From positions 173,786,001 to 173,850,000 of the forward strand of contig OZ024741.1 in NCBI GenBank assembly GCA_964016885.1: a stretch of DNA of 64,000 nt. The letters run 5' to 3'. Below are positions 513 to 13,369 of the stretch, piece after piece (the stretch's first letter is position 1; each line of letters opens with the position of its first letter). The position numbers were made by a program, and so were the translations under genes. The notes beneath the pieces are model-generated. The model did not search any database and was not told the origin of the DNA. It worked only from the letters and a program-made list of their open reading frames with translations. This DNA is from Eledone cirrhosa. Lineage: Eukaryota.

Positions 513-878
<366 letters not shown>

Positions 879-960
879 TAAGATAAGCAGAACAAGTAAA
901 ATTCAATCAATTTTTCAAAATACATTAAAAAATATAATATAAATATTTACCTCTTCTAGT

Positions 961-1046
961 GGCCCTTACTGATCAGTTTCGCTTTGTAAAACCTCATAAA
1001 TCCGATGGATTCATGATGGAAAACCAAAGCTCATCAGAGAAGCATT
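961..1046 (-). ncRNA. Type I hammerhead ribozyme, family B (inverted copy)
   Basis: Reverse complement of the motif at 1697-1780. Confidence 0.8.
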
Positions 1047-1696
1047 TTCCCATCCTAGGGCTAAACGTCCCAGGAACGACAAAATATACAACCTCCTGCC
1101 AGCTAATAAAGGTCTGAAAGGTCGTAAAAGTGACCCGTATGTAAACTGGACCGAAGTAAAAGCGGGAAAATCAAAGACTTGCTGTCTACAATTACTACTA
1201 AAGAAATAGCAGCCTAGTAAAGCAACAGATTTGTTCTCAACGGACGGAGAAAAAGGTATAAGTTAATATGTCCAGTAAACTGATCAGTAAGGGCCACTAG
1301 AAGAGGTAAATATTTATATTATATTTTTTAATGTATTTTGAAAAATTGATTGAATTTTACTTGTTCTGCTTATCTTAATATTAAAGTTCTGGTGTATCAA
1401 ATTAACACCATTGAACAACCCTGAATCATAGACAACCTATGTATTTCTAGGGGTACCTAGTATCCCTGGACATATTAACTTATACCTTTTTCTCCGTCCG
1501 TTGAGAACAAATCTGTTGCTTTACTAGGCTGCTATTTCTTTAGTAGTAATTGTAGACAGCAAGTCTTTGATTTTCCCGCTTTTACTTCGGTCCAGTTTAC
1601 ATACGGGTCACTTTTACGACCTTTCAGACCTTTATTAGCTGGCAGGAGGTTGTATATTTTGTCGTTCCTGGGACGTTTAGCCCTAGGATGGGAAAA

Positions 1697-1780
1697 TGCT
1701 TCTCTGATGAGCTTTGGTTTTCCATCATGAATCCATCGGATTTATGAGGTTTTACAAAGCGAAACTGATCAGTAAGGGCC
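1697..1780 (+). ncRNA. Type I hammerhead ribozyme, family B
   Basis: CTGATGA 1704-1710; stem II gctttg/caaagc with inner tcatgaatcc/ggatttatga; GAAA 1761-1764; palindromic ctgatcag; GUA site at 1772-1774; stem I wobble-rich. Confidence 0.82.
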
Positions 1781-1965
1781 ACTAGAAGAGGTAAATATTT
1801 ATATTATATTTTTTAATGTATTTTGAAAAATTGATTGAATTTTACTTGTTCTGCTTATCTTAATATTAAAGTTCTGGTGTATCAAATTAACACCATTGAA
1901 CAACCCTGAATCATAGACAACCTATGTATTTCTAGGGGTACCTAGTATCCCTGGACATATTAACT

Positions 1966-4669
<2,704 letters not shown>

Positions 4670-9678: not shown

Positions 9679-10117
9679 AATGAAGGTTTAGCAAATAAGA
9701 AAAAGTTTCAAAAATAAATTTTTGAAAATTAACTTTCCTCACTATGGTTACCTTTACCGAAACGGTTTCGAGTCTCAAAAATAAATGGACAGTCCTTACG
9801 GCATCCATTGCAAAGATAAACTCTCGTCAGAAGGATCTTTTCACTCGGAGAATATAAAATTCCCGAGTTCAAATTACGAACTGGCGCTATTCAAAATTGT
9901 TCCCGAGATGAGAATAAATGATGTGAGAGCAATTCCTTCAAGTGCCGTGTGTAAAGATAGAAGCAAAGGCAGGGAGGTCAGTCAACTACCACTATAACTA
10001 GCAGCAGTCAGAACGACCAAATTTTTTCTCGACCAAGAGGAGAGTAATAATAAAGTATACATATCCATACACGCACAAAGCGATTAGGGAAACATGTATT
10101 GTCCAACCATATGCATA
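9679..10117 (-). mobile_element. Family K ~440-bp non-coding HHR element between TA tracts
   Basis: Unique island flanked by TA tracts 9354-9678 and 10118-10605; contains an HHR. Confidence 0.7.
9751..9834 (-). ncRNA. Type I hammerhead ribozyme, family K
   Basis: Minus strand: cctt CTGACGA gagttt...atgga..tccat...agactc GAAA ccg-ttt-cgg TA aagg. Confidence 0.82.
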
Positions 10118-10828: not shown

Positions 10829-13369
10829 TCAAATCTCTAATGAAGCCATGGAAGTCATGGGTTTGGCATAATGGGAATGGGGGATTTGTTTTTTGTTATT
10901 AATGGTATCTAACCAGAGCTCTGTGTCTAGTACAGGTAATCGATGGTTGGGGTGTTTACTTGGGTAGTCTATAGTAACTCTAATGCTTTGGTGGATGGAG
11001 TTAGCTATTTGCTGGATGCTTTCCATTGTGTTTTTCTCTAGTTCCTGACTGTTCTCTAGTGGGGGTGTCTTAACTACGATGTTTATATCATCAACGTAGC
11101 GGGAGTACATTATCAGGGTTAAGGGGTCTTCTAATTGTTCTTTAAGCTTATGTTTAAGTCTACTGTCCCACCATACCATGAATAAGTTAGCTATGTCGCC
11201 TCCAATGCTAACACCAATGGCTGCTCCTTCCTCTTGGGCACATGTTTTTCCATTAAATTTGAACATATGTTCCTTAAGGGTTAGTTTTATGCTGGCCCCT
11301 ACCGCATGTGCAATCATTTTCTTCAGTTCAACGTGGTTTTCGTGTGTCCGTATGGCTCTGGTCCACCCGTTCCATCTATCTGTGTGGGTTTTCTTGGCCA
11401 TTGAGGTAATGGTAGGTGGTCTGCCTCTTGCTGGTCTTGTAGGGCACAGGTTGCTAAGGTCATATGTGTCTAGGTAATTATTACTATAGGTAAGTTTAAG
11501 TAGGAGTCCCAACTCACTGGTATCAATCCCACGGAACTCAACATTGCTCTCACTGATCATTTCTACGCACTTCTCCACAGCAAAATCCACGTCAATAGAT
11601 GGATACAGGGACACAACATCCATACTACCTATTATGCAGTTTGTTAGGTCCCTAGATCGGTTACTCACGCCGATTCTGCTGAGGAGGTCCTCCATGCTGT
11701 CACATACATCTGGGGACATTTCAATAATGGGGCGTATGATCAGGGAGAGGAAGTAGGACAGTCTGTAGATACTAGCAATGTTAGCTCCACAGACTGGCCG
11801 TGTTGGTGGTCCCGCGACAGGGTCACTGCCCGTTTTATGGTCTTTTCGAAGCCCATACAACGCCGGCACGTCATTGTTCCAGGCCTGGAAGTTGTTGGCA
11901 GTCCTTTTGTTGGGCTGCATTATATTCGTCCACATCACCATATGGGCATTGAGGGCTTTTTCTCTATCCTCATGCTCCTGTGGTGTTACCTCTCTTGTGT
12001 TAGTGATGTGGGGTTGCATTGCCTGGATGTAGTTTGGCAGGCTGTCAACCGACATTCTGCCAGACTTGTCTGTTGGAAAGCATGCTATCTCTCCATTACG
12101 CGAGCGCTGCATGAGCTTACGCAAGCCATTTGCAGATTTTTCTCCCAGTTGCTGGGCCTCCATTCTATTATGCTTCTTGCTATACTGTTCTATAATATTT
12201 CTAAGTTCGGATCTAGCTATACTAAATTGTGCTTCTGTTTGTTCATCGACCTGCGACGGCAATTGCGTGCGTTTGTTAAATGGTAAAGTCGTGGCGTGGA
12301 CTCGTCGCAGGTCGAACGATTTATCCGAGGGATTATAAAAACTAGAGTTCCAGGCTGCTGCTTTATGTGTACTAGTGCTATTGTTATTGTTAGTTGTGTT
12401 GTTTCTATTTCTATTTCCACCAACAGCCTCATGGTTGTTTCTATGTCTCTCATAATTACTCCTGTCTCTTTCCACTGGCTCATTGTTGTTATCTACCCTA
12501 TTTTGTGTGTCTGTGTGTTCGTCTTGGTTATTTTCTTTGTCCTTAGTCTCCCTTCTCCTTTTAATCCTATTACTTTCCCTTATTTCTGTGATTTCTGTGC
12601 TACTGTCATTACTTGTTTTCTGTGTCTGTGTGTTTGTTAAGATTGTGGTGGTGGTGAGAGGCATTGAATGTGTGTGTGTTGTTGTTGTTGATGTGTGCTG
12701 TTGTTGATGTGTGTTGTTGTTGTCTCCGTGTGTGTTATTATTGTTGTGTATGTTGTTATTGTTGTTTGTGTCTGCGTGTCTGTTGTTGTTGTTTCTAGGT
12801 ATGTTGTTATTGTTGTTGTTGTTGGTGTGTGTGTTGTTGTTATTGTTGTTTGTGTCTGTGTGTCTGTTGTTGTTGGGATGTGTGTTGTATATGTGTGTGC
12901 GTATATTGCTGCTTTCGTTTTTGTTTTTGTTTTTGTTTTTGAGGCTCCAGCGTAGTTTTGTAAATGATTTTTCTATTTCTGACAGACAACTAATCATATT
13001 TACCTTCTTGAATGTCGCAAATTTCGGGGGTAGACATAATACAGATAACTCATCATTATCTATTTTTGTGTTGCCGTATATATTTCTGTTGTTGTTGTTG
13101 TTGAACTCATCTGTTAATGAGGTGTCGGCCATATTTATACCGTCAATTTTGTCGGGATATCTATTGGTATTCTCTATAGTATCCTGATTTAGCTTTATCT
13201 GCTTAAGCCACTTTAGTTTCTTGTTAAAGTGCTTATCACATTCTTCAGTAATGTACTGTTCTTCAGGACGTATAAGGCTTATAAATATTAGTTTCTCTCT
13301 TGGTGTTGTGATCCTAGCTATTTCTTGTATTAGGTTACGCTTATGTTTTTCTTGATGATCTATAGAGAA
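10829..13369 (-). pseudogene. PLE ORF: N-terminal domain, Asn/Thr/His-rich linker and RYVDD-type reverse transcriptase; truncated in the thumb region
   Basis: PTDKSG, LYGLRKDHK, PTRPV, GSMDVVSLYPSI, QEEGAAIG, YSRYVDD, LPVLD, HYAKPM; frame stays open upstream of the ATG to 13369 (...HFNKKLKWL...). Confidence 0.9.

Follow-up and report, generated by a model that had tools for sequence, protein, structure and literature searches.

What kind of element keeps a ribozyme-like fold in a short, noncoding repeat, and does such a repeat move on its own or as the end of something larger? This question is raised by a stretch of DNA from the cephalopod Eledone cirrhosa (assembly GCA_964016885.1, contig OZ024741.1, positions 173,786,001 to 173,850,000, forward strand), the whole 64,000 nucleotides (nt) of which we call the window, and in which two diverged copies of a 485-nt unit are found, here called copy A (875-1969) and copy B (33975-34540). 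An initial annotation had proposed that the differences between the two copies are compensatory across a whole hammerhead ribozyme, and that this is a mark of selection on RNA structure, a proposal that would fall if a larger alignment held no covariation or if the unit, never propagating alone, merely served as the terminal repeat of a longer, coding Penelope-like element (PLE). We consider it highly probable that copy A is one two-armed insertion of a 485-nt noncoding retrozyme of the metazoan non-long terminal repeat (non-LTR) kind, with a type I hammerhead whose helices have been kept by compensatory changes; self-cutting is predicted, and copying into (TA)n by a Penelope-like reverse transcriptase is likely.

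The two copies and their hammerheads

The features on which the argument rests are listed below in window coordinates, with the basis of each in brackets.

600..874, no strand: left flank, a (TA)n/(CA) microsatellite, the insertion target (direct reading)
875..1275, minus strand: minus arm of copy A, 0.83 unit (unit 190-485 then 1-105), 5'-truncated at the centre (complementarity; own-genome matches cover 980-1275 as unit 190-485)
961..1044, minus strand: hammerhead motif of the minus arm, predicted cleavage between 967 and 966 (core scan; model R1, 102.7 bits at 942-1050)
1277..1969, plus strand: plus arm of copy A, 1.43 tandem 485-nt units (direct repeat at spacing 485)
1375..1484, plus strand: segment between two fixed 3' ends, unit 99-208 (fold of 1366-1490; end positions from 101 arms)
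1697..1780, plus strand: complete type I hammerhead of copy A (core scan, model R1, fold, alignment)
1970..2400, no strand: right flank, a (TA)n microsatellite running past 2400 (direct reading)
33975..34540, plus strand: copy B, a single-arm insertion of 1.15 units with a period of 487, of an older subfamily (relatives 87-95% identical)
34263..34346, plus strand: hammerhead of copy B, with a broken box (model R1, 130.1 bits)

The nonrepeat sequence of copy A, which is embedded in a long (TA)n/(CA) microsatellite, spans 875-1969, such that the limits of 878..1966 given initially were roughly right and need only be moved to these exact positions. Its minus-oriented arm (875-1275) is the exact reverse complement of 1466-1866 (100%), and its plus-oriented arm (1277-1969) consists of 1.43 head-to-tail units of 485 nt, with 1277-1484 and 1762-1969 being 100% identical. 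As the 3' end of the minus arm, at unit position 105 (...CTTATCTTAATAT), abuts the left (TA)n, and the 3' end of the plus arm, at unit position 208 (...CATATTAACTTAT), abuts the right one, we read copy A as a head-to-head insertion. Copy B, in turn, is flanked by (GA)n/(TA)n and (TA)n, and its 3' end (...CATATTAACTTCTTTTA) belongs to the unit-205 type. The two units are 77% identical (368/478 aligned positions, with 16 gap columns), and their length is indeed kept, with a period of 485 in copy A versus 487 in copy B. The unit has a G+C content of 36%, no open frame above 83 amino acids (aa), and no Pfam match. Noncoding tandem units of low G+C content with one hammerhead each are what is expected of a retrozyme (a primer binding site and a polypurine tract were not specifically sought), as is the dispersed, multicopy family spreading on its own that is described below.

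In copy A, the hammerhead comprises helix I (1698-1703 as its 5' strand, where 1700 bulges out, and 1775-1779 as its 3' strand), the box CTGATGA (1704-1710), helix II (1711-1760, in which a conserved internal loop separates a 6-bp proximal stem from a 10-bp distal hairpin), GAAA (1761-1764), and helix III, formed by the 10-nt palindrome ACTGATCAGT (1764-1773) and followed by A at position H17 (1774). All elements of the type I core are thus present (CTGATGA, GAAA, the A15.1-U16.1 pair at A1764/T1773, and A1774), surrounded by three helices and open at helix I, where the 5' and 3' ends lie, and cleavage is predicted between 1774 and 1775, after GUA (unit 13/14). Copy B lacks an intact core: its box reads CAGATGA (34269-34275), with U4 changed to A at 34270, while GAAA (34327-34330), helix III (ACCGATCGGT, 34330-34339), and the site equivalent to the point of cleavage (34340/34341) are all found. 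This change is private to copy B, being absent from the 40 other B-type rows of alignment A2, most of which have CTGATGA and a few of which have different changes in the box, and copy B is a decayed copy with a broken core.

The structural comparison of the two copies bears out the initial annotation at each of the three places that it singled out. The helix III palindromes ACTGATCAGT (1764-1773) and ACCGATCGGT (34330-34339) are both in the sequence; the distal hairpin of helix II changes from TCATGAATCC/GGATTTATGA in copy A to ATTGGAAGTCC/GGATTTCCAAT in copy B, with one G.U pair in each; and the base of helix II changes from GCT/AGC to ACT/AGT. In the 27-pair structure as a whole, 22/27 pairs are standard in both copies, and we counted seven two-sided compensatory changes and three one-sided changes with pairing kept, the remaining 5/27 pairs being unpaired in one of the two copies. 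When the partners were slid by 1-3 columns, only 0-1 two-sided changes were obtained, and 5000 random re-pairings of the same columns averaged 0.74, with 5 as the highest count. The differences between copies A and B are, furthermore, enriched in paired columns (24/54 versus 11/57 in unpaired ones).

Covariation across the family

To place the two copies in their family, the genome was searched with a pattern of two anchors lying outside the core, which gave 1661 matches compared to 11 for the reversed pattern used as a control, and the family thus has at least 1661 copies. We took the first 100 matches in chromosome order as our sample, leaving out two unrelated ones; a filter removed a further two genuine copies with broken cores, and the remainder provided 72 distinct sequences, which together with the two window copies make up an alignment of 74.

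In this alignment, 86.0% of pair cells are paired, versus 33-47% when the partners are slid, with 124 two-sided changed cells (versus 5-28) and a covariation score of 0.225 (versus at most 0.075), and none of 500 column shuffles matched the observed paired fraction, two-sided cells, and covariation score. An earlier set of 44 sequences had given a very similar picture (87.2% of cells paired, versus 32-47% slid), so that the covariation holds in both of the larger genomic alignments, and the first of the two outcomes that would have undone the initial proposal did not materialize. Each of the three helices contains two-sided changes. An intact core is found in 60/74 sequences (the two broken-core rows dropped beforehand are additional to these), and mean column conservation is 98% in the core, compared to 83% in paired columns and 85% in other unpaired columns. 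The internal loop of helix II is invariant, with its TTTC and TTTT columns conserved at 98-100%. A perfect 10-nt palindrome in helix III is present in 62/74 sequences, as ACTGTACAGT in 29, ACTGATCAGT in 18, and ACCGATCGGT in 15.

Because related sequences can share a change by descent, we also counted origins of change on a tree made from the flanks of the 32/74 copies with complete flanks (the other 42 were dropped). This places approximately 20 origins of two-sided changes in 11 pairs, versus 1-11 for slid partners. Intermediates are found among the sequences themselves: U-A, U.G, and C-G at pair 36-57, and U-A, U/C, and G-C at pair 23-69, with an independent C-G besides. The paired fraction, the covariation, and the flank-tree origins therefore support selection on RNA structure in a noncoding unit, as initially claimed, and support the view that the helices have been kept by compensatory changes with the RNA fold, as read from these alignments, under selection. 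What such selection acts on is the RNA lineages from which new copies arise, not the copies once inserted, and copies such as copy B then decay.

Two further observations can be added. One-sided helix changes are mostly from A-U to G.U (UA 54/UG 19 at pair 35-58, and UG 51/UA 22 at pair 11-88), the kind of change that neutral evolution through wobble pairs is expected to produce where helices are rich in AU. In addition, a conserved hairpin lies directly upstream of the hammerhead (1660-1690 in the window, and in the same place elsewhere), with the sequence TCCTGGG...CCCTAGGA in subfamily A and TCCTGGGG...ACCTTAGGA in another subfamily; by eye only, the changes between them appear to preserve pairing.

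Insertion shape and a probable link to Penelope-like elements

Two age classes are apparent among the copies. In subfamily A, 28 units are full length and 100% identical to the query (875 bits), on 10 contigs, and arrays of up to ~15 units were found in a DNA search of the same genome, whereas subfamily B is older, with copies that are 87-95% identical. On this evidence, the family is old yet still active, the latter because so many copies are 100% identical.

For the shape of the insertions, we sampled 73 loci in chromosome order, with 101 arms in total. At 73/73 loci the arms contain unit sequence only, up to 3.2 units, and the flanks of these loci have no reading frame in common. Taken together with the lack of coding capacity, this indicates that the unit spreads alone, and the initial expectation of independent propagation thus stands across the 73 loci, at which the unit was not found as the mere terminal repeat of a coding PLE. 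The arms have a median length of 488 nt and a maximum of 1553 nt. Their 5' ends fall at 71 distinct unit positions, and their 3' ends are concentrated at two points, namely, unit ~105 (60 arms) and unit ~205 (31 arms), with 10 elsewhere. The flank is TA-rich at 56/60 ends of the first type and 20/31 of the second, and in the older subfamilies the 205-type end has a few extra bases before the repeat. Among 23 head-to-head pairs, 17 join ends of the two types (105 with 205), one has two 205 ends, none has two 105 ends, and five include an atypical end; copy A obeys the same rule, with 105 at its left and 208 at its right. At one such insertion (L070, G000:C1:30627741-30630849), both arms carry the box CTTATGA (G5 to T); the same rare change in both arms implies the same or an identical template, whose ribozyme is predicted to be inactive.

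The two fixed 3' ends bound a segment with structure of its own. TTAATAT (1375-1381) is complementary to ATATTAA (1472-1478), and in the predicted fold of 1366-1490 (-29.5 kcal/mol, z -3.4, 0/200 shuffles as good) these strands close a domain of three hairpins. This closing helix is missing from the minimum-energy fold of the whole monomer, and its equivalent in copy B has one mismatch.

The footprint described above is that of PLE insertions: as described by Craig et al. 2021 (PMC8557442), these favor (TA)n, are truncated at the 5' end, and show partial tandems, a neighboring inverted copy that is itself 5'-truncated, and a one-ended extension, and the family has each of these properties. Potential enzyme sources are abundant, with at least 10,597 GIY-YIG candidates in the genome. 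One locus (L171, G000:C1:145868500-145877500) has an intact 938-aa frame with RVT_1 and GIY-YIG, and another (L172, G000:C5:100716500-100725500), located via its GIY-YIG match, has an 844-aa frame with RVT_1. These intact PLEs are a possible source of the enzyme.

L171, L172, and L180 represent a young PLE with intact frames of 844-938 aa (RVT_1, GIY-YIG), a minimal hammerhead of its own (box TTGAAAA, a U3-A8 variant, with ACCGGT as helix III), and a 3' end (...CTTTCTAATAT) that lies in (TA)n; L171 also displays the tandem junction of the pseudo-LTR. Right after the 3' end of the PLE at L172, in (TA)n, lies a relative of the present family (L172:5500-6415), with a period of 459 nt, a CTGAAGA box, and model R1 scores of 86.5 and 84.6 bits. 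These were the only strong R1 matches at 10 loci with long frames, and they mark a separate retrozyme insertion beside the PLE; we therefore rejected L172 as a coding parent, as its hammerheads belong to this independent retrozyme in the adjoining microsatellite. Within the window, the stop-free 846-aa frame at 10829-13369 (minus strand) was likewise set aside as a partner, having no Pfam match even at E values up to 10 and being separated by (TA)n from the adjacent hammerhead element.

Taken as a cycle, these data are consistent with the following sequence of events. Tandem arrays would be transcribed, and the hammerhead would cleave the transcript after GUA (1774/1775 in copy A) to yield 485-nt monomers, which may then be circularized by a tRNA ligase of the RtcB type; type I hammerhead retrozymes, circularization by tRNA ligase, and dimeric action have been reported in metazoans (Cervera and de la Pena 2020, PMC7229834), as has an origin of retrozymes from PLEs (Li, Clavereau and Pollet 2026, 10.64898/2026.07.22.740005). 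A Penelope-like enzyme would nick (TA)n and prime from both DNA ends at two AU-rich sites, copying a circle or multimer repeatedly round to give arms of more than one unit, and the two cDNAs would be joined at random inner points. We take the template to be a circle or multimer that is primed internally, since the arms start at two internal AU-rich sites instead of at the cleavage site, and since they can exceed three units. A more specific version, which we put forward tentatively and with more doubt than confidence, is that one small RNA, probably a circle, serves as the template on which both ends of one (TA)n break prime, at two fixed sites that are the complementary strands of the domain-closing helix, which would explain the 105/205 pairing; in this version the hammerhead would be selected for its dimeric form, with the GAUC and GUAC variants of helix III both kept.

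Competing explanations, known relatives, and meaning

Several of our results weigh against the retrozyme reading or parts of it, and need to be set against the evidence presented so far. Neither copy is reported by the Rfam hammerhead models, either in a scan of the whole window at the gathering score or in scans of both copies at E values up to 10, probably because helix II is ~50 nt long (the Rfam matches that are listed, to mir-3689, snoRNAs, and others, we dismissed as chance). In the family alignment, the 10.1-11.1 pair at the base of helix II is nonstandard in 47/74 sequences (standard in only 27, with U/U in 35), although a U/U at this position has been described in the axolotl retrozyme hammerhead HHR_Amex2 (PMC7229834), and the outermost pair of helix I is nonstandard in 60/74. 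The number of pairs with any two-sided change (11, versus a shuffle mean of 10.5) and the number of further pair types (28, versus 33.3 in shuffles) are not above those of the shuffles. On the side of the enzyme, model R1 matched none of the 30 best GIY-YIG loci, and a search of 40 PLE loci turned up no coding PLE whose own ends contain this hammerhead. The only runs found to contain the sequence, four of which were examined, are contigs of unknown kind, short and deep with loose ends into (TA)n, and as these behave like genomic DNA, they give no evidence for RNA and do not bear on expression, ends, or circles. The dead-ribozyme template implied by L070 was nevertheless copied, an outcome in keeping with an uncleaved multimer and also with a circle. 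Finally, the lone 109-nt monomer of copy A has a hammerhead fold of -18.0 kcal/mol, compared to -29.4 kcal/mol for a competing fold that pairs CUGAU of the box with helix III.

This last point bears on how the ribozyme may act. Amphibian satellite hammerheads cleave as dimers via a weak helix III. In the present family, helix III amounts to 3 bp closed off by a tetraloop with a palindromic sequence, and in cofolds of five family members all form a 10-bp intermolecular helix III that lies 11-16 kcal/mol below two monomers. The palindromic helix III, the stable cofolds, and the preference of monomer A for a competing fold argue for dimeric cleavage, as in amphibians, and these models suggest that cleavage probably occurs as a dimer via the palindromic helix III.

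Three other explanations can be weighed on the same data. That the repeat is an ordinary satellite or a DNA-level palindrome, with paired changes arising from shared descent of a few subfamilies or from DNA hairpin repair, is in our view very improbable. It is true that many of the two-sided cells stem from few subfamily splits, that column shuffles yield about as many pairs bearing a two-sided change, and that related sequences may beat shuffles without any structure; however, the slid-partner controls, in which relatedness is kept, fall far below the observed values (33-47% of cells paired, and 5-28 two-sided cells), as do the origins counted on the flank tree (1-11 versus 20), and DNA hairpins do not explain why the unpaired catalytic core should be the best conserved part. 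That the copies are dispersed in (TA)n, end at fixed 3' positions, and are 5'-truncated points, moreover, to retrotransposition and not to unequal crossing-over. Somewhat less remote, but still poorly favored, is the explanation that the unit is the pseudo-LTR of a coding PLE, with its copies being solo or truncated ends and not a self-standing nonautonomous family. PLE insertions do suffer heavy 5' truncation and build terminal repeats, both tandem and inverted, in which hammerheads reside (PMC8557442); Xenopus retrozymes resemble pseudo-LTRs (10.64898/2026.07.22.740005); and the terminal bases of one kind of arm (TCTTAATAT) are similar to those at the 3' end of a PLE that is intact in this genome (TTCTAATAT). 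Against this, the arms at 73/73 loci consist of unit sequence only (up to 3.2 units, and ~15 elsewhere) with no shared frame in the flanks, the 5' truncation points go round the whole unit and do not run into an internal region, and 0/40 PLE loci have this hammerhead in their own ends; the unit was, accordingly, nowhere physically joined to a frame with reverse transcriptase and GIY-YIG, either in the sampled flanks or at the 40 PLE loci. As this comparison took in 73 of the ~1661 copies and 40 of the PLE candidates, which number more than 10,000, a rare parent element could be missed.

The remaining explanation accepts that the fold is real and selected and differs in the template, which would be an uncleaved linear multimeric transcript, with the hammerhead put to a different use, for instance to trim read-through RNA or to mark the RNA for the reverse transcriptase, and with no role for small circles. 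We regard this as unlikely, yet as the strongest of the three. Arm 3' ends at ~105 and ~205 lie away from the predicted cleavage at unit 13/14, but internal priming on a circle also explains such ends. The dead box in both arms of L070 and the genomic arrays of up to 15 units, which could yield long transcripts, speak for a linear multimer, as does the unclear function of hammerheads in PLEs (PMC8557442), whereas arms that exceed the median source array, together with two fixed starts, fit a small template copied repeatedly, and homologous elements in coral, mussel, and axolotl give circles (PMC7229834). The present results do not distinguish a circular from a linear-multimer template.

The closest known systems are the metazoan non-LTR retrozymes of coral, mussel, and axolotl (PMC7229834) and of vertebrates (10.64898/2026.07.22.740005), which likewise have short, noncoding, AT-rich tandem units with a type I hammerhead in each, are dispersed in many copies, and are associated with PLEs, an association seen here in the insertion footprint. 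The axolotl retrozymes share with the present family a short helix III with a palindromic tetraloop, suggesting dimeric action, and, in HHR_Amex2, the U/U mismatch that many copies here have at the base of helix II (PMC7229834). In contrast to these systems, for which RNAs of ~170-400 nt and repeats of 150-450 bp are described, the unit here is 485 nt long, helix II, at ~50 nt, is unusually long and holds an internal loop that does not vary, the family is known from genomic DNA alone, and the host is a cephalopod. A limited literature search on octopus found no report of a retrozyme for this host, in papers that mention octopus only in passing. The longer unit, the unusually long helix II with its invariant internal loop, and the cephalopod host are thus the family's own traits.

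Tandem genomic repeats with type I hammerheads are also known from satellite 2 of newts and salamanders and from SM-alpha of Schistosoma. Compared by description only, these are alike in being tandem genomic hammerhead repeats of this type, and unlike in having shorter units and short helices II. Like endonuclease-positive (EN+) PLEs, the family inserts in (TA)n with strong 5' truncation, forms partial tandems, has an inverted 5'-truncated copy alongside, extends at only one end of the insertion, and carries a hammerhead near the 3' end (PMC8557442). It differs from them in that the unit has no reverse transcriptase or GIY-YIG frame, and in that the one-sided extension is ~100 nt, compared to 30-40 bp in those elements (PMC8557442). 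The intact PLEs of this genome also carry a different, minimal hammerhead with a U3-A8 box.

The window holds further hammerheads in addition to those of copies A and B. Four copies of a different, minimal motif lie on the plus strand at 20926-20951, 21395-21420, 28226-28251, and 28695-28720 (CTGATGA, a 4-bp helix II, GAAAC, and the palindrome ACTAGT), as two pairs with a spacing of 469 nt within and ~7.3 kb between pairs, and RVT_1 frames at 16256-17218 and 23327-24883 lie on the opposite strand to these. At 9690-10110 (minus strand), a single-arm noncoding element of ~420 nt between two (TA)n tracts represents another retrozyme family, with a hammerhead of the same architecture (CTGACGA box, long helix II, and helix III ACCGTTTCGGT; model R1, 38.3 bits). 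An inverted pair of hammerheads at 53339-53448 (minus strand) and 54237-54346 (plus strand), with the helix III palindrome ACTAATTAGT and R1 scores of 38-40 bits, belongs to a further family and looks like another head-to-head insertion.

Published work already covers retrozymes, their hammerheads, and the connection with PLEs, and our understanding of this kind of element is unchanged by the present family. What it adds is that a small noncoding repeat of a cephalopod is a living retrozyme lineage and not dead satellite DNA, with a ribozyme fold kept through many compensatory substitutions and a youngest subfamily that is identical across chromosomes. The family also offers a natural mutational series for a hammerhead with a long helix II, including the wobbles that are permitted, the loop that is invariant, and the helix III palindromes that are allowed. 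The regular shape of its insertions, furthermore, provides a testable picture of how retrozymes may be mobilized by Penelope-like enzymes, a step that the literature treats as a hypothesis, and if two-site priming were true, the family would record how Penelope-type enzymes copy small ribozyme RNAs.

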